From the UHGV virus genome UHGV-0289694: a stretch of DNA of 25,018 nt; one strand, 5' to 3'. The notes under the pieces are model-generated. The model did no database searches. It saw nothing but the letters and a program-made list of their open reading frames with translations, and was not told where the DNA came from. Shown in pieces: positions 6,064-15,513 of the stretch (its first letter is position 1; every line of letters begins with the position of its first letter). Origin of the DNA: a virus. A program made the position numbers and the translations under genes.

Positions 6064-6917
6064 GCACCATCCTGAAATGGGCGGGAAATAAAACCGCCAT
6101 TATGTTCGAACTGAAAAAACATCTTCCTGCTGGTCCGCGACTGGTTGAACCTTTCGCGGGTTCCTGTGCAGTGATGATGGAGACGGATTACCCCAGCTAT
6201 CTTGTTGCGGATATTAATCCTGATTTAATCAACCTCTATAAAAAGGTTGCTGCTGATTGTGAGGCGTTTATATCTCGTGCCAGAGCTTTATTTGAGGAAG
6301 CAAACAGAGAGGTGGCTTATTACAACATAAGGCAGGAGTTTAATTACTCCACTGAAATTACTGATTTCATGAAAGCGGTATATTTTCTGTATCTCAATCG
6401 TCACGGTTACCGTGGTTTATGTCGCTATAACAAGAGCGGGCATTTCAACATTCCCTACGGTAATTATAAAAATCCGTATTTCCCTGAAAAAGAAATTCGC
6501 GCATTTGCAGAAAAAGCCCAGCGAGCAACGTTTATCTGCGCCAGCTTTGATGAAACGCTGGCGATGTTGAAGGCGGGGGATGTGGTGTATTGCGATCCGC
6601 CGTATGACGGTACGTTTTCCGGCTATCACACTGATGGTTTCACTGAAGATGACCAGTATCACCTGGCATCCGTTCTTGAACATCGGTCATCAGAAGGACA
6701 TCCGGTCATTGTTTCTAACAGTGACACATCCCTGATCCGTTCGCTGTATCGCAATTTTACTCACCACTATATCAAGGTAAAACGCAGCATCGGTGTGGCA
6801 GCTGGCGAGGGTAAATCAGCAACAGAAATCATTGCTGTTTCCGGGCCGCGCTGCTGGGTGGGATTTGATTATTCGCGTGGCGTGGATAGTTCTGCCGTGT
6901 ACGGAGTACGTGCATGA
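6060..6917 (+). CDS. dam: DNA adenine methyltransferase (Dam-like, N6-adenine)
   Basis: N-terminal ILKWAGNK...EPFAGSCAV (AdoMet-binding motif I) and the DPPY catalytic motif ([10 protein letters not shown]); GGAGG RBS; ATGA overlaps with TraR-like upstream and gene A downstream. Confidence 0.9.
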
Positions 6918-9307
6918 GCCATGCCGATATGAACAACTGCTGCGGCTTTAACGAGGTTGCCGCAGCGTTCTCATGGAACAGCCCGAAAAAGGCCATTAAC
7001 CCTTATCTGGACCCGGCGGAAGTTGCGCCGGTTTCTGCGCTTTCAAACCTGATCACTCTGTACGCTGCCGATAACGAGCAGGAACAGTTGCGCCGCGAGG
7101 CACTGAGTGATCAGGTCTGGGAGCGTTATTTTTTTAATGAATCACGTGATCCTGTCCAGCACGAAATGGAGCAGGATAAGCTCATTAGCCGGGCAAAGCT
7201 GGCGCATGAGCAGCAGCGTTTTAATCCGGATATGGTCATTCTGGCGGACGTCAACGCCCAGCCTTCTCATATCAGCAAGCCGCTTATGCAACGTATTGAA
7301 TACTTCAGCAGCCTGGGCAGGCCAAAGGCTTATTCCCGCTATTTACGTGAGACGATTAAGCCATGTCTGGAACGACTGGAGCATGTACGCGACAGCCAGC
7401 TATCTGCATCTTTTCGTTTTATGGCAAGCCATGTAGGGCTGGACGGCCTGCTGATCCTGCCTGAAATGAGTCAGGATCAGGTGAAACGCCTGTCTACCCT
7501 TGTCGCTGCGCATATGAGCATGTGCCTTGATGCAGCTTGTGGTGATTTGTATGCCACCGATGACGTTAAGCCAGAAGAAATCCGCAAGACATGGGAAAAG
7601 GTGGCAGCGGAAACCCTGCGTCTGGATGTCATCCCGCCTGCGTTTGAGCAACTCCGTCGGAAAAGAAACCGCCGTAAACCCGTGCCCTATGAACTCATTC
7701 CGGGTTCGCTGGCGCGTATGTTGTGCGCCGACTGGTGGTACCGGAAATTATGGAAAATGCGTTGCGAATGGCGGGAAGAGCAGTTGCGTGCTGTCTGCCT
7801 GGTCAGCAAAAAAGCATCTCCCTATGTCAGCTATGAAGCCGTGATGCATAAACGTGAGCAGCGCCGCAAGTCACTGGAGTTTTTCCGTTCTCATGAACTG
7901 GTGAACGAAGAGGGCGACACGCTGGATATGGAAGACGTGGTAAACGCCAGCAGCAGCAACCCGGCGCACCGCCGCAATGAGATGATGGCCTGTGTTAAAG
8001 GTCTGGAGCTTATCGCGGAAATGCGCGGTGACTGCGCCGTTTTCTACACCATTACCTGTCCGTCACGTTTCCATTCCACGCTCAATAACGGCAGACCAAA
8101 CCCAACCTGGACAAATGCGACGGTAAGACAAAGCAGCGATTATCTGGTCGGCATGTTTGCTGCATTTCGTAAGGCGATGCACAAAGCCGGGTTGCGCTGG
8201 TATGGCGTGCGGGTGGCTGAGCCGCATCATGACGGTACAGTTCACTGGCACCTGTTGTGTTTCATGCGCAAAAAAGACCGCCGCGCCATTACTGCATTGT
8301 TGCGTAAATTTGCCATCCGTGAAGACCGCGAGGAACTGGGTAATAACACTGGTCCACGCTTTAAATCTGAGCTGATAAACCCGCGCAAAGGAACGCCGAC
8401 AAGCTACATCGCGAAATACATCAGTAAGAACATTGACGGGCGTGGTCTGGCTGGCGAGATCAGCAAGGAAACGGGTAAATCCCTGCGTGATAACGCTGAA
8501 TACGTTAATGCCTGGGCGTCTCTGCATCGTGTTCAGCAATTCCGCTTCTTTGGCATTCCGGGGCGTCAGGCTTACCGTGAACTGCGATTGCTGGCTGGTC
8601 AGGCGGCAAGGCAACAGGGTGACAAAAAAGCAGGTGCGCCGGTACTGGATAACCCGCGCCTTGATGCCATTCTGGCTGCAGCTGATGCTGGTTGCTATGC
8701 CACCTACATCATGAAGCAGGGCGGCGTACTGGTTCCCCGTAAATATCACCTCATCAGAACCGCTTATGAAATCAACGAAGAGCCGACCGCCTATGGCGAT
8801 CACAGTATTCGTATTTATGGCATCTGGTCACCCATTGCAGAGGGCAAGATCTGCACTCATGCAGTGAAGTGGAAAATGGTTCGTAAGGCCGTTGACGTTC
8901 AGGAGGCGGCAGCCGACCAGGGCGCTTGCGCCCCTTGGACTCGTGGCAATAACTGTCCCCCTGTTGAAAATTTGAACCAGACAGGGGGGGAGCTGCCCGA
9001 TATTAAAACCATGAATGAGCAGGAACTGCAGGATTACCTACACAATATGGGCCAGAAGGAACGCCGGGAGCTGACAGCCAGGTTGAGACTGGTAAAACCG
9101 AAGCGGAAAAAAGCATACATACAGAGTATTTCGGAGCAACAGCGCCTGCAGCTTGAGGCAGAACTCAGCTCCCGGGGATTTAATGCAAGCGATGCTGAAG
9201 TGGATCTACTTTTACGTGGCGGCAGCATTCCGTCAGGTGCCGGGCTGCGTATTTTTTACCGCAAACACCGGCTGCAGGAAGATGACAAATGGCGGCAGTG
9301 GTACTGA
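6914..9307 (+). CDS. A: Rolling-circle replication initiator (P2 gpA-like HUH endonuclease)
   Basis: 797 aa; HUH-type motif VHWHLLCF and active-site tyrosine motif [12 protein letters not shown]; size and position match P2 A / 186 A. Confidence 0.9.
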
Positions 9308-9386
9308 CAGCAAGGCTTTAACAATTCATGCTCTTAACGACTCTGCGCCAGAGTGTTCTCATTGACGGATAAAAAATATTTTACAT

Positions 9387-9422
9387 TTGAATACCAGGGG
9401 TGTACTGTATATATATACAGTA
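9387..9422 (+). promoter_or_regulatory. SOS-regulated promoter: -35 TTGAAT, 17-nt spacer, -10 TATATA, overlapped by a perfect LexA box TACTGTATATATATACAGTA (9403-9422)
   Basis: The 20-mer is the palindromic consensus LexA operator (CTGT-N8-ACAG) and covers the -10 hexamer. A second palindrome GTATGCATGCATAC follows at 9420-9433. Confidence 0.75.
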
Positions 9423-9469
9423 TGCATGCATACAGCTATCGTGTGTCCGTGGTCGTGATAGGAGGGAAG

Positions 9470-9658
9470 ATGCAGGACTATCTTTTGGAGTCGTTGAAGC
9501 TCCAGCGCATTGATTTTTTTATTAAGCTTGTAGCGGCTAGTGAGTGTAACGACGAAGAAAAGCGGCTGGCTATCCAGTGGGTTTCGGAGTTGACCGATGA
9601 GCTTATGGCGAAGATTCGCGCTCATGAATACAACCGCTCAATGGATCTTCCTGGTTAG
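9470..9658 (+). CDS. Small SOS-controlled protein, possibly a Tum-like antirepressor
   Basis: 62 aa; GGAGGGA RBS; first ORF downstream of the LexA-boxed promoter. 186-type phages carry a LexA-repressed tum gene at this map position, but I did not recognise Tum or DinI sequence similarity. Confidence 0.4.
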   Translation: MQDYLLESLKLQRIDFFIKLVAASECNDEEKRLAIQWVSELTDELMAKIRAHEYNRSMDLPG

Positions 9659-9799
9659 TTTTTCAAAGCTGAAAACAACCGAGTGAAAGTTACGACGCTT
9701 GAACTTTTAACTTGGGTTACAATCAGAACACTCGTTTTCGTTCACAAACGAACCTGCCATACCCTAATGTGGTAATGGCGTTCAATTTTTACTAAATGG

Positions 9800-10360
9800 T
9801 TGCAAATGCTTGTTATGAATCATGTAATGTTAGATATAGAAACATTGGATGTTGAAAAAACGGCTTATATCCTTTCGGTTGGTGCGGCTTTCTTCGTGCC
9901 GGAGACTGGCGAGGTTGGTCCGGGTTTCTATCAAGTTATTTCGCTTGATCATGAACAAGCAGGCAGAACCATTGCCCCCTCCACTGTAAAGTGGTGGATG
10001 TATCAAAGTTCTGAAGCTAAAAACGAAAATTTTGGTGGCACTAAGGACCTTTTAGACGTTCTGAATGAATTTGTGGCGTTTGTTCTTCATAATCGTAATG
10101 GCCGAGTAAAAGTGTGGGGAAACGGGAAAGAGTTCGACTGCACTATCATGCATCATGCCCTGTCACAGGCAGGTCTGGAGTGCCCATGGTCATTCAGAGA
10201 TACTCTTGACGTCAGAACCATCTTAGCGCTTGGTGAAAGCAAAGGAATTTTTTCTCATGCTGACAAAAAGTTCACTGGCATCAGGCACACAGCATTCGAT
10301 GATGTTTTATTTCAGATCGCACTGGTTTCTCATATCTATATGAATTTAAATAAAAAATAA
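9800..10360 (+). CDS. DnaQ-like DEDDh 3'-5' exonuclease (start may be at 9815 or 9827)
   Basis: Exo I motif MLDIETLD (D-x-E), Exo II WGNGKEFDCTIM, Exo III HTAFDDV (H-x4-D); ~180 aa single-domain protein; lower GC than phage core genes. Confidence 0.8.
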   Translation: MQMLVMNHVMLDIETLDVEKTAYILSVGAAFFVPETGEVGPGFYQVISLDHEQAGRTIAPSTVKWWMYQSSEAKNENFGGTKDLLDVLNEFVAFVLHNRNGRVKVWGNGKEFDCTIMHHALSQAGLECPWSFRDTLDVRTILALGESKGIFSHADKKFTGIRHTAFDDVLFQIALVSHIYMNLNKK

Positions 10361-10375
10361 ATATAGGACTTAGCT

Positions 10376-11287
10376 ATGGATTGCTTAGATGTAACCAATT
10401 GGACTGAGCTAGATGTTTTCGCACAATATCCTGTTGGTGCTCGCTCTAAGGCATTGGTTATTTCCCCTGATGTAGCACCCCATGGTATCAAAGCATCGTG
10501 GCCGTATCTTTTTAAGAGAAGTATTAAAAAGTATCCAGATCAATTTTGGTGTGAGATCGTTGCCTACAGGATTGGATTGAAGCTTGGTTTTGATGTCCCC
10601 AAAGCAGTTCCATCGGTAAAGACTAATGATTTGGGGCATACGTTTTGCGGGGCCCTCATTGAGTGGTTTCATCATAAAGATTATGAGAAATTTGCTCCCG
10701 CTGGTGATTACTTTGTCCGAAGAGATCCAAATTTTGATCGCGAGAAAGGAGCTCAGCATTCCCTTGAAGGGCTGAGGATTATCGCGAAAGCTCTTAAAGT
10801 TGACTATGTTGAGTGGTTGGAGGACATGGCTCTCTTTGACGCTGTGATAGGTAATACAGATAGACATCAAGAAAATTGGGGGTTTGTCTTTTCACCTTTA
10901 GCCAGCGAGTGTCAGCTTGCACCATTTTTCGATAATGGTACGAGCTTATGTTACGAACGCTTTCCGGAGCATGTTGCCGATTGGACCGATCATAGACTCA
11001 GGGAGCATGTTGGCCGGGGAAGGCATCATTTGCGTAAGACTCTGGGCAAAGATGAGTATCAGAGATTAGGTCATTTAGAGTTCATCAAAGAACTTTGTGA
11101 TAAAAAAGAAGCATTAAAACAGCGGGTAGCTGAAAAACTGGCTCTTTTGAACCATGATTTTTGGGAGTCAACTTTTGCGGAGTTGACGGAAATAAACTGC
11201 CCTGTTCCGCTGACTAGAGAACGTGCTGCATGGATTGTTCGTGTAACAAACATGCGTATTGAACTGATTAAAGGTGTTACTTCATGA
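10376..11287 (+). CDS. HipA-like Ser/Thr kinase core (HipT-like, lacking the HipA N-terminal subdomain)
   Basis: P-loop-like PVGARSKALV (cf. HipA VAGAQEKTAL), catalytic motif VIGNTDRHQEN (cf. HipA GATDGHAKN; Asp at nt 10859), Mg-binding LAPFFDNG (cf. HipA TPFYD); 303 aa; 15-nt gap after the exonuclease gene. Confidence 0.8.
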   Translation: MDCLDVTNWTELDVFAQYPVGARSKALVISPDVAPHGIKASWPYLFKRSIKKYPDQFWCEIVAYRIGLKLGFDVPKAVPSVKTNDLGHTFCGALIEWFHHKDYEKFAPAGDYFVRRDPNFDREKGAQHSLEGLRIIAKALKVDYVEWLEDMALFDAVIGNTDRHQENWGFVFSPLASECQLAPFFDNGTSLCYERFPEHVADWTDHRLREHVGRGRHHLRKTLGKDEYQRLGHLEFIKELCDKKEALKQRVAEKLALLNHDFWESTFAELTEINCPVPLTRERAAWIVRVTNMRIELIKGVTS

Positions 11288-11988
11288 CTATCTTAATAGA
11301 AAACATTCCCATGCCCAGTAGGCTCTTACTGACATGGCAACCGGTTGACGGAGGCTCTCGCTATGTCGTTGGTGAGCTTCTTCAAGATGAGTCTGAAGGC
11401 TACGAGTTTAATTATCTTACTGATAGCAAAGATTTTGCTAAAGCTAGGGATAACGGCTTTCGCGGTTTTCCTGCTTTTGATATAAAAGTTGCGACTCATC
11501 GCAAAGACGTTATGCAAACCTTTTCAAGAAGGTTACCCTCCAGGAAAAGAGAAGATTTTGACGATTACTTGCTGACGTTTCGTCTTCCTGCTGATTTTAG
11601 AGAGAATGACTTCGTTTTGCTCGCATGTACTGGCGGAAAAGTTGCTAGTGATGGTTTTTATTTTGTCCCAGACTTGTCTTCTGTTCGGCCACCTTTCGAT
11701 TACGTCATGGAGGTCGCTGGAACGAGGCACATGATCAAGGAAGGGCGTCTAGCGCTTGATGAGATATCAATTGGTGATGAAGTCATATTGCGGAATGAAG
11801 ATACCAATACGGTTGATCCGCTGGCCATATTGGTTACGAAAAACGACAATCATCTCGGATATGTCAACAAGGCATTGTGCGCCGCATTACGTGATCTAAG
11901 TAAAAACCATGATGTCAGTGGAGTGGTCGTACGTAAAAATGGCTCTTCGGATAGGCCTTTGATTTATGCAAAAGTATCCGTTCGGTGA
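11284..11988 (+). CDS. Two-domain protein: HipA N-terminal-like (HipS-like) domain fused to a HIRAN-like domain
   Basis: ATGA start/stop overlap with the kinase gene. N-terminal LLLTWQPVDGGSRYVVGELL...FSRRLP...LLACTGGKVASDGFYFVP parallels HipA residues 1-100 (KLVTWMNNQRVGEL...FDNLLPD...IGRDSVGAVTLIP). C-terminal DEVILRNEDTNTVDPLAILVTKNDNHLGYVNKALCAALRDL...VSGVVV fits the HIRAN pattern (L-x-L-x-R-E-x-x-N-x-x-D-x-x-A-I-x-V ... G-Y/H-hydrophobic ... A-x-x-L-A-x-x-hydrophobic-D). Domain calls are from motif memory, not a search. Confidence 0.6.
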   Translation: MTILIENIPMPSRLLLTWQPVDGGSRYVVGELLQDESEGYEFNYLTDSKDFAKARDNGFRGFPAFDIKVATHRKDVMQTFSRRLPSRKREDFDDYLLTFRLPADFRENDFVLLACTGGKVASDGFYFVPDLSSVRPPFDYVMEVAGTRHMIKEGRLALDEISIGDEVILRNEDTNTVDPLAILVTKNDNHLGYVNKALCAALRDLSKNHDVSGVVVRKNGSSDRPLIYAKVSVR

Positions 11989-12089
11989 AGCATGTTTATT
12001 CATGCTTGCCGGTAATAAGGTGCTCTTGATTTAGTGCATGTCTATGCCGCATAAATCCGCATGATCGTTTGATGATCGTTTTAGCTGAG

Positions 12090-12117
12090 GCCCGCCAGGA
12101 ATGGCGGGCTTTTGCTT
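12090..12117 (+). terminator. Rho-independent terminator ending the accessory operon
   Basis: GCCCGCCA-GGAA-TGGCGGGC (8-bp GC-rich stem) followed by TTTTGCTT. Confidence 0.65.
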
Positions 12118-12158
12118 ATGTCATGCAGGCGCATGAAAACTGCTACATAAAGCGGGCA

Positions 12159-12177
12159 GGCGTGGCGGGGATACGAG
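12159..12177. other. Putative cos site (cohesive-end sequence)
   Basis: GGCGTGGCGGGGATACGAG; the first 13 nt match the 186/P2 cohesive-end sequence as I recall it (GGCGTGGCGGGGAAAGCAT), and the location between the A-side accessory region and Q is as expected. From memory only. Confidence 0.35.
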
Positions 12178-12382
12178 CGCGCACTCTGGGGTAAAATGGT
12201 CAAAATCCACCGCAATTTACTGGCTCAGGAACGTAGTTAGTTTTGTAGGTATAAACGGCTCTCACGTTAGATAGGCATGCAGGATGTGTTAAATCGTTGT
12301 GATGAAGTTAACGGTGACTGAGACAGTTTAGGTCTAAGATATAACTTCTGGGTTAGTTAAAAATTGGAATAGTAAGACATTT

Positions 12383-12679
12383 ATGAAAACTACTTATAGC
12401 TATGATTTTCAATATATGCGCAAAGGTCAGGATCGCCCTGATGATGATGGAGAGGTTGTAGGGTGTAATTCAGAAGACAACTCGCTTTTGATGCTTCCAA
12501 ATGTGGGAGACTACGTAACAATTACGAATAAGGGTGGGCGTGCTCAATTTGATGGGCGGGTGAAAACAAGGCTTTTCAATTACCTACGCATTGCTGATGG
12601 TCATGTTCATTGCTCCATTTGCATTGTAGTTGAGGAAGTTGATATGGACTCCGTATGGGGGGCACTAATTAAAGAATAA
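12383..12679 (+). CDS. Hypothetical small protein between cos and Q
   Basis: 98-aa ORF, AT-rich, weak RBS, followed by a terminator hairpin; no motif recognised. It contains Asp-rich PDDDGEVVGC and a C-terminal HCSIC pair. Confidence 0.45.
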   Translation: MKTTYSYDFQYMRKGQDRPDDDGEVVGCNSEDNSLLMLPNVGDYVTITNKGGRAQFDGRVKTRLFNYLRIADGHVHCSICIVVEEVDMDSVWGALIKE

Positions 12680-12685
12680 TAGAAT

Positions 12686-12701
12686 GCCTGCAAATGCAGG
12701 C
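12686..12701. terminator. Bidirectional terminator hairpin between the 98-aa ORF and gene Q
   Basis: GCCTGC-AAAT-GCAGGC palindrome with T-rich flanks on both strands, between convergent genes. Confidence 0.5.
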
Positions 12702-12709
12702 GCTTTAAT

Positions 12710-13750
12710 TTACTCAGAAATATCTAAGTTGTAAGATTCAAAGCAAATCACTTTTTCACCTAGCCAGTTGTTCAGCTCTTGCAGCCGCTTTTGCAGTGGC
12801 ATCAGTTCATTGCGGACAAACACTCGACTAGCCTTCTCCACATCCCCAAACCCCCCGACATTATTAGGCATTATCCCCATCATTTGTGGCGGCACACGAT
12901 GCGCCGCCATCATGTCGTCCCGGCTCACGTTCTTGATATTCAGGAACTCATCCTTCGCCGCCACTTCTGACAACGGGATAATCTGAAGCCCGTCCTTTTT
13001 ACCGTTAGGCGAGTACATAAACAGGTTACGGAAGTTACCAGGACCTTTGGCGCTTTTCATCGCATTGCGGAGGTTGTTCACATCCTCCTGGTTCTGCGCA
13101 GCATCGGTCATGTACATGATGAAGCCTGCATGACTGCCGTTAATGTAATACTTGCGGCGGAACAGCGTGGCGGACTCGTTGAGCAGAGCTGACGGAATGG
13201 CAGAAAGATAACCGGGCAGGCCGTAGATCTCCTGGTTAATGTCCGGTTCCATCAGATGAAAAATGCTGCCTTTCGTGAACTGATACGGCTGGGTTGTCAT
13301 ACCGTATTGCACAAACCAGTAGGTATCCAGGTCTAACCCGCGTCGGGTGTATTTTGCCAGTGCAGGCTCAAGGGCGATAACTTCACCGAAGCGGTTCGTG
13401 CGTTTCTCCAGGTAGGCGTTACCAAAAACCAGATAGTCCTGCACAAAACGCGAAAAAGCCTGCTGGCTGAGCAGCGGGTGAGGGATGTAGGTGCTGGTCA
13501 GAATGTTGCATTTCACTGCAATTGGTGAACTGTGATGCACGGCAGCGCGGAAGGTGCGCGCCAGTCCGTCAAAGCTGACGGGAGGCTCATACCAGCGATC
13601 TGTCTGTACGCATTCCACATAGTCCAGCAGTTCGCGGCGGTCAAGTACTGGAATGGGATCACCGAAGCTGAATGCTTCGGCTGAAGCTTGGCTTTTATGC
13701 TGGATCTGGTTCGTCGCCGCAGCGCATTTTTTTTTACTCTTTCCCATCAA
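12710..13750 (-). CDS. Q: Portal protein (P2 gpQ-like)
   Basis: 346 aa; size, position downstream of the large terminase on the minus strand with start/stop overlap, and overall resemblance to P2 Q. Confidence 0.9.
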   Translation of the reverse strand: MMGKSKKKCAAATNQIQHKSQASAEAFSFGDPIPVLDRRELLDYVECVQTDRWYEPPVSFDGLARTFRAAVHHSSPIAVKCNILTSTYIPHPLLSQQAFSRFVQDYLVFGNAYLEKRTNRFGEVIALEPALAKYTRRGLDLDTYWFVQYGMTTQPYQFTKGSIFHLMEPDINQEIYGLPGYLSAIPSALLNESATLFRRKYYINGSHAGFIMYMTDAAQNQEDVNNLRNAMKSAKGPGNFRNLFMYSPNGKKDGLQIIPLSEVAAKDEFLNIKNVSRDDMMAAHRVPPQMMGIMPNNVGGFGDVEKASRVFVRNELMPLQKRLQELNNWLGEKVICFESYNLDISE

Positions 13751-15513
13751 AAAATCTCCACAATATTGCTGGTATTGGCGGACTCGCCCTGCAGCGGTTC
13801 GTTAAACAGTGCGTGCATTGTTGCCCAGGCCAGATCGGCATGGCTGGCTTCTTCGCTGCGGCTTGCTTCATAGGTCGGGCGGTTGCCACTGGCAGTGGTA
13901 GCGCGACGGATTGCCATAAATGACTGCGCAATGTCGGTGTGCCCGGCGTCAAACTCCAGACGGCGGTGGCTGATAATGTCGTAGGCCTTGAGTACCAGGG
14001 CGTTTTTAACGTTGGGGTTGTAGACAAACTCCCTGACGGCAGGAAAAAACGCTTTCACGTTCTCGTAAACCCCGTGACCGACGCCGGTCGAGTCGATACC
14101 GATATAGGTCACGTTATACTGTTCGGTCAGTTTTTTGATGGCGTCAGCCTGGGCGCGGAAGTCCATCCCGCGCCACTGGTGACGCTCAAGAATGCGGAAC
14201 TTACCACCCGGCACGGCTGGCGGAGCCACCACCACGCATCCGGCACTGTCGCCGTTCTGCGTACCTTTTGCCGGGTCATAACCGATCCACACTTCCCGCC
14301 AGCCAAACGGGCGCAGGGCCAGTGCATGAAAGTCGGTCCAGACTTCCCAGCTGTCCACCATGCACGCCTGCAGTTCGCTGAGCGGGAACACGGACGCGAG
14401 ATCGTCCACGAACTCGCACATCAGCAGGTTCTGGTATTCGTCCGGGCTGTACTCCATGCGCAGCTGGTCGAGGTCGAACAGGTTACAGCCGCCGCGCACC
14501 GCATCTTCCACGGTGACTATCTGGCGGTATTGCCCGTCTGCGCACAGTAGGCCGGGGGCCAGATTGCTGTGGGACAGGTCGATGTCCACCTTGTCAGCTT
14601 TGTTGCGTCCACGGTTGAACAGCGCACCGGACCAGAACGGATAAGCACTGTGGGTCAGGCTGGATGGCGTGGAAAAATAGGTTTGTCGCCATTTCTTGTG
14701 AATAGCCATACCGGAAGCCACTTTGCGCAACTCCTGGAATTTCGGTATCCAGAAATATTCATCCAGATACAGGTTGCCGTGGTAACTCTGCGCCGTGCGG
14801 GCATTGGTGCCGAGGAAGTAAAGCGTGGCCCCGTTAGGAAGCACCATCGGATCGCCTTTCAGCTCCACCTCGACTTCTTTGGCGAAGTCGATGATGTACT
14901 GCTTAAAGACGTGAGCCTGTGCCTTACTGGCAGAAAGGAAAATCTGGTTACGTCCGGTAAGCAGGGCGTCAATCAGGGCTTCACGGGCAAAGTAAAAGGT
15001 CGCGCCGATCTGGCGTGACTTCAGCAGGTTGCGGATGCGGTTGGTTTTTCCGGCTTCCCACCAGTGGCGCTGGTAGTTGAACATGGAGGAATGGAAGATT
15101 TCTTCCAGTTTATCTATCTGTTCATCGGTGAAAACATTCTTTTCCGGCTGACGGCGCGGGCCTTTGTTGCGGTTGGCGACGTTAGGGTTTAAGTCGGCTT
15201 CGTTGCCGCCATTGTTAAACTTGCCGATCCGCGCGTGGCGCTCCGACTGGCGCGCCAGCAGGTCAATTTCTTTGAAATCTTTCCCTTCTTTGTGCTCCTT
15301 CATAATGAGCTGGCAGTAACGTGCGGCGGTGGTGAGCTGCATCTGATCCAGCGGCCCATAGTCACCCCACTTGTCGCGTTTCTTCCAGCTGTGAACGGTT
15401 GCAACTTTCTCGCCCAGCATTTCAGCAATGCGGGCTACGCGGTATCCCTGAAAGTACAGCAGCATGGCCTGCCGACGGGGATCGAGATCTGCGGATGTCA
15501 GTGTGGTGTTCAT
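13747..15513 (-). CDS. P: Terminase large (ATPase) subunit (P2 gpP-like)
   Basis: 588 aa; N-terminal HTH-like region followed by an ATPase/nuclease body; divergent from O as in P2. Confidence 0.9.
   Translation of the reverse strand: MNTTLTSADLDPRRQAMLLYFQGYRVARIAEMLGEKVATVHSWKKRDKWGDYGPLDQMQLTTAARYCQLIMKEHKEGKDFKEIDLLARQSERHARIGKFNNGGNEADLNPNVANRNKGPRRQPEKNVFTDEQIDKLEEIFHSSMFNYQRHWWEAGKTNRIRNLLKSRQIGATFYFAREALIDALLTGRNQIFLSASKAQAHVFKQYIIDFAKEVEVELKGDPMVLPNGATLYFLGTNARTAQSYHGNLYLDEYFWIPKFQELRKVASGMAIHKKWRQTYFSTPSSLTHSAYPFWSGALFNRGRNKADKVDIDLSHSNLAPGLLCADGQYRQIVTVEDAVRGGCNLFDLDQLRMEYSPDEYQNLLMCEFVDDLASVFPLSELQACMVDSWEVWTDFHALALRPFGWREVWIGYDPAKGTQNGDSAGCVVVAPPAVPGGKFRILERHQWRGMDFRAQADAIKKLTEQYNVTYIGIDSTGVGHGVYENVKAFFPAVREFVYNPNVKNALVLKAYDIISHRRLEFDAGHTDIAQSFMAIRRATTASGNRPTYEASRSEEASHADLAWATMHALFNEPLQGESANTSNIVEIF

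Follow-up and report, generated by a model that had tools for sequence, protein, structure and literature searches.

A mobile single-gene cassette between cos and Q of a P2-like prophage and its possible role in conflict between phages and hosts

What is a small gene doing in a P2-like prophage, in the stretch that separates its cohesive end from its portal gene? The question is raised by ORF98, a 98-codon, AT-rich open reading frame (ORF) in a 25,018-nucleotide stretch of the virus genome UHGV-0289694 (hereafter the window), which is a P2-like prophage. An earlier reading of the DNA, the original prediction, had placed this frame in a widened gap between a cos-like sequence and the portal gene Q, and had suggested that it could be a moron (in the usage of Juhala and Hendrix, a transcription unit additional to those of the prophage itself) with a role in defence or anti-defence. 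All that was described is there, to within a few bases of the positions given; the frame is on the + strand, it starts with an ATG and no N-terminal extension is possible. Judged from comparisons between genomes, ORF98 is a mobile, selected single-gene cassette in a cargo slot where most of the neighbours resemble defence systems. For the fuller account, in which this self-contained moron in the cos-to-Q arm of the gpA–gpQ hotspot acts in conflict between mobile elements or between phage and host, we regard the odds as even.

ORF98 belongs to a coherent protein family. A search of 5.8 billion proteins returned 49 homologues (E 6e-60 to 5e-15), all of 94–126 aa, and a profile search of 1.84 billion cluster representatives gave 203 members at E ≤ 1e-3, counted as representatives of clusters at 50% identity; nearly all of these are single-domain proteins of 90–100 aa. 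Twenty residues are invariant among 32 aligned members, including R18-P19, D21, G23, F56, G58, C77, L95 and K97. There are two conserved runs: P39-N40-V41-G42-D43-Y44-V45, in which N40, Y44 and V45 are kept in at least 90% of the sequences and the rest are invariant, and I81-V82-V83-E84-E85, in which V82 and E84 are kept at that level and the rest are again invariant. Compared with the alleles of other P2-like prophages, ORF98 gives a dN/dS of 0.03–0.17 where dS is computable, with pN of 0.09–0.28 and synonymous sites near or past saturation. By these measures of substitution, ORF98 is a genuine protein-coding gene under strong purifying selection.

The slot in which it lies can be defined from the phage backbone. 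The sequence GGCGTGGCGGGGATACGAG can be aligned to GGCGAGGCGGGGAAAGCAC, annotated as cosL in phage P2 (NC_001895 1–19), with 11 of the first 12 bases matching; a core, GGCGTGGCGGGGATACGAGCGCGC, is unchanging among six aligned P2-like loci and within cos the 12-mer GGCGTGGCGGGG is invariant in all of the aligned P2-like loci. With its cosL/cosR-like sequence inside this common core, the predicted site fits a P2-type cos site (Peduoviridae). It is flanked by the A side on the left and by the packaging genes Q and P on the right, the terminase gene P (13747–15513, − strand) coming next after Q, and the order A-cos-Q-P is the same in P2 and in the related loci L001–L008. The gap that separates the end of cos from the stop of Q measures 532 nt in the window vs 167 nt in P2, where it contains the tQ terminator only, so that the predicted widening is real. 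The gap in the window contains a 165-nt AT-rich leader, the 98-codon frame and a hairpin, with no other ORF of at least 30 aa between ORF98 and Q. The block around cos (~12035–12185) is present in 1239 of 5426 complete Escherichia coli genomes and in 77 phage records at 80–95% identity; among the 25 loci listed, of 73 matching, the match is 143–181 nt long.

Homology to P2-like prophages that lack ORF98 breaks at ~12185–12225 and returns in the 3' end of Q. DNA like 12218–12709 is found in 12 of the 5426 E. coli genomes, vs the 1239 with the cos block. Two of the carriers have the window allele (99.6–100% identity) and ten have DNA that is ~69% identical, an allele (P0013) encoding a protein 67% identical to ORF98. 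About 1% of the E. coli genomes with a cos block therefore carry a family member, always at the cos–Q spot and convergent with Q, with a hairpin shared by the two genes at its end. In the enterobacterial P2-like loci examined, the homologue begins 117–317 nt past cos and heads toward Q in all; Q follows directly in most of them and one extra gene intervenes in L062–L064. In relatives without the gene, the distance from cos to Q is ~130 nt (L017, L018) or 167 nt (P2). The GC content is 41.8% for ORF98, 40.4% for 12218–12709 and 50.2% for the whole window. The segment thus has the marks of a moron, namely variable presence at one junction, a distinct base composition and its own terminator, and the moron-like insertion that had been proposed is borne out by an AT-rich segment with its own hairpin that is absent at the same junction in P2, L017 and L018.

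These observations also bear on a quite different explanation, in which there is no gene of this kind at all and the interval is cos-flanking packaging DNA with a chance open frame, or encodes a lineage-specific packaging accessory factor. The immediate adjacency to cos would be expected on this account. The dN/dS values are not, nor is the absence of the gene from P2 and from ~99% of the E. coli genomes with a cos block, nor the presence of the family in elements without P2 packaging genes, and we consider the explanation refuted. The conserved non-coding cos flank that was named at the outset as the alternative to a gene is not what the interval contains.

The position itself is an ordinary one for cargo. 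Askora et al (2017; PMC5694545) named the cosL–Q position as a hotspot for foreign genes in P2-like phages, and a passage of their paper, with reference to Dodd & Egan (1996) and Nakayama et al (1999), places ctx of the Pseudomonas phage phiCTX between cos and the Q homologue. Rousset et al (2022; PMC9122126) defined the gpA–gpQ interval near cos as a hotspot, counting 1650 arrangements of genes among 18,150 E. coli loci, and gpA–gpQ was confirmed as a major P2 defence locus by Moura de Sousa et al (2026; PMC13586616). ORF98 is encoded between gpA and gpQ and so lies inside the hotspot as defined in PMC9122126; the protein at its position in two near-identical E. coli loci, WP_000859244, is given as "hypothetical" in the table of that paper. 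We also took a sample of 80 P2-like contigs from IMG/VR (L081–L160) whose Q is 93–98% identical to that of the window. In the 73 where cos could be located, the cos–Q interval ranged from 166 to 2861 nt and was longer than 500 nt in 71, proportions that are only indicative because the sample favours Q genes resembling that of the window. A gene at this position is therefore not the rarity that it had seemed, and the argument that it would be among the first or last DNA to enter the cell contributes nothing, as the position is a generic cargo slot.

The ORFs found in these cos–Q intervals are mostly convergent with Q. Named by eye from their translations, they include a retron-type reverse transcriptase, HipA with HIRAN, DprA with a phosphoribosyltransferase, TIR, AIPR/Abi-like proteins, a KAP NTPase, OLD-like and other AAA ATPases, and DUF262. 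The ORF98 family occupies 5 of the 73 intervals, alone in 3 and followed by a 228-aa protein with four predicted transmembrane segments in 2. On the A side of cos, the sampled contigs are either empty (84 nt after DinI) or hold ~0.7–1.2 kb. Most of the cargo of the sample is on the Q side; in P2 (old, tin) and in the window the main cargo is on the A side. The gpA–gpQ hotspot consists of two arms split by cos, and these can be filled independently. In an E. coli P2-like prophage (L019 4360–5136) the cos–Q gene, in the same orientation as ORF98, is annotated "competence protein CoiA".

The A-side cargo that accompanies the ORF98 family varies from carrier to carrier. It is an exonuclease, HipA and HIRAN in the window, a P-loop NTPase in L001 / strain LR-50, GAPS4-like genes in HCM-26C-1 and beside the P0013 allele, an HNH gene in other P0013 loci, and HEPN_LA2681 in one carrier locus of the table of Rousset et al (PMC9122126). 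As the cargo across cos differs between carriers, ORF98 is an independent module.

The family is not confined to P2-like phages. In Klebsiella lambdoid prophages a homologue with 83% identity has a GmrSD_N + HEPN pair on one side and DinI, DUF1367, YbcO and an antiterminator on the other. Next to it are a degenerate P2 cos block and ~220 nt from the 3' end of Q, with ~72% identity to the window in each case, and a P2-derived fragment has evidently been moved into these prophages. The homologue is intact, while the P2 cos block and the Q 3' end persist as partial fragments only; that the ORF has been kept and its P2 flanks only in part suggests that the family is selected for itself. One member of the 90% cluster of the Klebsiella homologue is found on 252 contigs. 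The P2 fragment spans 6709–7519 of L075 and is seen also in L055–L057, L076 and L077, in a nin-like region.

Other homologues are found in a Serratia prophage, among small early genes near umuDC-like genes and an integrase, in an Agrobacterium prophage, between lysis genes and an HD/dGTPase-like gene near an integrase, and in Desulfuromonas, adjoining an IS110 transposase. In a gammaproteobacterial metagenome-assembled genome (MAG; L013 6001–6297, also L014–L016) a homologue with 54% identity lies near a TniQ-Cas8/5-Cas7-Cas6 module, which belongs to a type I-F3 CRISPR-associated transposon (CAST); ~760 nt separate it from the module, on the side of cas6, and a 126-aa gene of no known function precedes the homologue. 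We assume that the ~760-nt gap holds the CRISPR array and that the homologue is cargo of the transposon. In a Rhodoferax MAG (L029 5995–6755) two family copies of 98 and 99 aa stand in tandem, 164 nt apart.

The gene does not seem to travel with a fixed partner. When the ORFs within 3.5 kb were clustered over 70 related loci bearing homologues, no partner was shared beyond the P2 backbone, and Pfam found nothing in ten proteins flanking the homologues (nine downstream, one upstream). Most of the homologues have no same-strand ORF of at least 80 aa within 200 nt downstream. Nor are there recurrent fusion partners: among 8 over-length members (118–212 aa) that were scanned, one has a domain (TetR_N).

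The ORF98 product has a molecular mass of 11.1 kDa, a pI of 4.9 and a grand average of hydropathy (GRAVY) of −0.43. It matches PHROG 12676 from end to end (residues 1–98 on profile positions 1–97 of 97, E 4.8e-52). This is ORF98's own family, made up of prophage proteins without functional annotation, and membership for that reason gives no mechanism. There was no match to ORF98 in Pfam or NCBIfam, and none in a tblastn search of 50,697 GenBank phage records. The exact protein occurs on 336 public contigs and is a "hypothetical protein" in every source name listed; full-text searches gave no paper for the accession, the PHROG identifier or the peptide motifs, and the papers searched report no phenotype for ORF98.

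An AlphaFold2 model built from the 32-sequence alignment (mean pLDDT 84, pTM 0.75) has five β-strands (residues 2–12, 26–29, 44–47, 56–71 and 74–84) and a C-terminal helix (88–95). Foldseek found nothing significant for the model in the PDB, with a best E of 0.25, and the best match in BFVD (E 1e-3) was to unnamed phage proteins. As modelled, the fold would be one without an identified relative. The top structural neighbours are Nudix hydrolases, with Foldseek E of at least 0.25, TM-scores of 0.3–0.4 and 1–12% identity; we rejected this relationship, the Nudix box GX5EX7REUXEEXGU being absent from ORF98 and a Nudix domain being longer than the whole protein. When PDB sequences were searched with a profile, the matches were marginal only, to designed double-psi beta-barrels (DPBB; E 0.005), running through the motif RPxDxG...vGDYVxI, and to YefM antitoxins (E 0.06–0.08). 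Cradle-loop barrels (DPBB and the AbrB/MazE swapped-hairpin type) were set aside, as no natural member resembles ORF98 significantly in profile or in fold. In hhalign, VatN-N, MazE and the NusG KOW domain had probabilities of 0.4%, 0.2% and 15%, respectively, and all three were rejected, although these comparisons are a test of the lead only.

The layout of the locus suggests how the gene might be expressed (Table 1). The "own upstream region" of the original prediction needs qualifying. The leader is specific to the cassette and varies among the cassette alleles, but the promoter candidates in it are weak ones only, scoring 7–7.5 on a scale of hexamer matches (12 at most) with a correction for spacer length, so that a promoter of its own is only presumed. 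A search for an Ogr-type TGT-N12-ACA dyad near ORF98 gave nothing convincing, no promoter block is conserved across the cassette alleles in the alignment, and the Shine–Dalgarno sequence of the window allele is weak. The hairpin between ORF98 and Q has a folding energy of −13.2 kcal/mol on the + strand and −11.7 on the − strand (z −3.3 and −2.8) and a T-rich tail, and it could terminate both the ORF98 and the Q transcripts. The stem-loop at ~12083–12116 folds more strongly than any shuffled sequence, is found also as an inverted repeat and is likely to be a terminator for the A-side cargo or for early transcription. It is conserved in the alignment of P2-like loci. The hairpins are thus where they had been predicted, but the upstream one is part of the conserved cos block and so does not bracket the ORF98 cassette. 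Given that ORF98 is convergent with the late operon, has its own hairpin and has a strong terminator and cos upstream, its expression should be independent of that operon, and we propose that it would be transcribed separately in the lysogen, as are old, tin and fun of P2.

Table 1. Coordinates of ORF98 and of the features that surround it in the window.
Feature	Position	Strand	Remarks
ORF98	12383..12679	+	98 aa, soluble, acidic; member of PHROG 12676
AT-rich, cassette-specific leader of ORF98	12218..12382	+	unmatched in P2-like prophages without the gene; promoter presumed
Bidirectional hairpin between convergent ORF98 and Q	12685..12702		terminator-like, both strands
cos, homologue of the 19-nt P2 cohesive end (cosL/cosR)	12159..12177		alignment to NC_001895 cosL
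P2-type cos block	12035..12185		backbone rather than cargo; reaches ~12215 in relatives without Q-side cargo
GC-rich hairpin and T run just 5' of cos	12083..12116	+	−25.2 kcal/mol, z −5.1
Portal gene Q	12710..13750	−	346 aa, right border of the slot; Pfam Phage_portal, E 2e-18
Replication endonuclease A	6914..9307	+	upstream of the three cargo genes
Rv2179c-like 3'-5' exonuclease	9800..10360	+	Pfam E 8.5e-51
HipA_C-type kinase	10376..11287	+	PADLOC candidate PDC-M03A/B
HIRAN-domain protein	11284..11988	+	PADLOC candidate PDC-M03A/B

A 10-nt sequence, ATGCAGGCGC, occurs both at 12123–12132, just 5' of cos, and at 12694–12703, in the hairpin 3' of ORF98. The pair is probably a chance match, and it does not delimit the cassette because it spans cos. 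There are no meaningful flanking repeats of the cassette, and an Rfam scan of 11900–12800 gave no match.

What, then, might the protein do? A defence or counter-defence role is plausible from the location of the gene. It would seem likely that a small, acidic, β-rich cytoplasmic protein binds a partner, either another protein or a small ligand, and does not itself catalyse a reaction, in view of its 98-aa size, its acidic surface and the lack of a match to a known enzyme family. Its role would lie in conflict between phages or between phage and host. Exclusion of other phages, rather unlikely when taken singly, would be somewhat likelier than counter-defence, a leaning that comes from the company kept in the slot and from the high hit rate of unknown hotspot loci: 6 of 8 loci of unknown function tested from P4 hotspots protected against phages, and predictions class 15–32% of the P2 hotspot proteins of unknown function as antiviral (PMC13586616). 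In its fullest form the proposal is that the PHROG 12676 family is a new single-protein conflict factor with an undescribed small β fold, an exclusion protein or an inhibitor or sponge, which travels in the form of a minimal cassette among P2-like and lambdoid phages and CRISPR-associated transposons. We offer this tentatively, as it is more likely to be wrong in some part than right in all.

Several observations weigh against a conflict role. A soluble 98-aa protein would be unusual as a single-protein defence, the known small exclusion proteins being mostly membrane proteins or lipoproteins. None of the families among the 5027 models of PADLOC-DB v2 matches ORF98 at E ≤ 0.01. A sigma-70 consensus scan of the leader returned no site at threshold, where 2.6 would be expected by chance. 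Every carrier in which the A side was examined (the window, L001–L008, L081) has A-side cargo already, so ORF98 is an add-on and not "the" defence cargo. Finally, tblastn detects homologues with 32–36% identity in Rhizomicrobium and related alphaproteobacterial MAGs (L032–L051), in recurring neighbourhoods that look syntenic and chromosomal and not like mobile elements; identified by eye, the neighbours include genes for isocitrate dehydrogenase, for glycosyltransferases and for a response regulator, and one that is N-formylglutamate amidohydrolase-like. Such homologues argue that the fold is not confined to conflict functions, and it is these apparently chromosomal distant relatives, together with the A sides that are already filled, that keep other readings in play.

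One of these is that ORF98 is a non-conflict accessory, either a host-physiology, stress or regulatory factor or a low-impact selfish passenger in a permissive slot. The Rhizomicrobium and other alphaproteobacterial homologues in their apparently conserved neighbourhoods fit this well, as does a family without any universally conserved neighbour, and the slot does hold non-defence cargo elsewhere (ctx of phiCTX, the Vgr-like ORFs of phiRSY1 and the CoiA-annotated gene of L019). It is nevertheless an unlikely explanation, given the strong purifying selection on ORF98 and the finding that most family members are on mobile elements; a neutral passenger in particular is disfavoured, because the homologue was retained in the Klebsiella lambdoid prophages where the P2 flanks are fragmentary. 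Counter-defence stays within the field of conflict and would have ORF98 act as a small acidic inhibitor or sponge, in an anti-restriction, anti-CRISPR or signal-sponge manner, helping the element to establish in hosts that have a defence system. A soluble protein of 98 aa with a pI of 4.9 and no catalytic motif is suited to this, and it would make sense of a gene that usually travels alone, that occurs on mobile elements of unrelated kinds (prophages of the P2-like, lambdoid and other types and the locus near the type I-F3 CAST) and that is an extra in prophages already bearing a defence system. Yet anti-defence genes are rare in P2-like phages, with detection in 28 of 1511 elements, and none is described at the cos–Q locus (PMC13586616). 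ORF98 is also ill-placed for early expression, since it faces the late operon and has a strong terminator and cos before it, the PDB searches gave no structural match to solved anti-defence proteins, and a type I-F3 CAST that carried an inhibitor of type I-F systems would be working against itself. We think counter-defence quite unlikely.

The gene might alternatively be one half of a two-gene system, a sensor, adaptor or antitoxin orphaned from a variable downstream effector that is often a membrane protein. In L062 (6348–7049), L119 and L155 the homologue is followed after 55–56 nt by a protein of 228–233 aa with 3–4 predicted transmembrane segments, unrelated proteins with predicted transmembrane segments follow it in four non-enterobacterial loci (Desulfuromonas, Parasphingorhabdus, Steroidobacteraceae and Arenimonas), and the weak profile matches to YefM would agree with an antitoxin. 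A same-strand partner is, however, missing in the majority of loci, including every close relative of the window allele, the downstream proteins have no detectable homology to one another and none is in Pfam, and the gene of the window is hemmed in between cos and Q. None of the antitoxin-like matches is significant, that to MazE in hhalign included, and a type II antitoxin was rejected because an adjacent co-directional toxin gene is absent in the window and in most related loci. A leftover of this kind is thus very improbable, and we return to a single-gene cassette, with a role in conflict, as the reading that we prefer.

On the other side of cos, the window carries a three-gene cargo. Its HipA_C and HIRAN proteins match the PADLOC candidate system PDC-M03A/B with E of 1.6e-34 and 5.8e-37. 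Rousset et al (PMC9122126) list "DUF5051 + HipA_C + HIRAN" and cloned an "Exonuclease + HipA" construct, pFR108; we found no phenotype for the exonuclease/HipA/HIRAN cargo, and HipA is unmentioned in the main text of that paper. In P2-like prophages DinI normally comes next after a 62-aa hypothetical gene behind A (L001–L008, L017–L019). The DinI gene is missing at 9353–9800, and tblastn with DinI finds nothing in the window.

The position of ORF98 is ordinary for P2-like phages and its family is already catalogued as a hypothetical protein. What is made explicit here is that the arms of the hotspot are split by cos, with a three-gene HipA/HIRAN system on the A side of the window and ORF98 on the Q side. 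As things stand, ORF98 is a clearly bounded candidate among the P2 hotspot genes that have no known function. Should it prove to be a conflict factor, a single gene for a protein of only 98 aa would make up the whole module and provide a new fold; this would make tests inexpensive and structural study rewarding, and its presence both on phages and on a CRISPR-associated transposon would be a further case of cargo shuttling between types of element.

It is instructive to set ORF98 beside the known cargo of this region. In related phages its slot neighbours look like defence systems, whereas ORF98 itself matches no defence model. It resembles ctx of phiCTX and ORF1–4 of the Ralstonia phage phiRSY1 in its cosL–Q position, its variable presence and its deviant base composition. 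The products are unrelated, however: that of ctx is a cytotoxin, secreted and pore-forming, and a Vgr-like protein is among those of the phiRSY1 ORFs, while ORF98 is a cytoplasmic protein of 98 aa. The old and tin genes of P2, finally, are on the A side of cos, and ORF98 on the Q side accompanies A-side cargo rather than replacing it.

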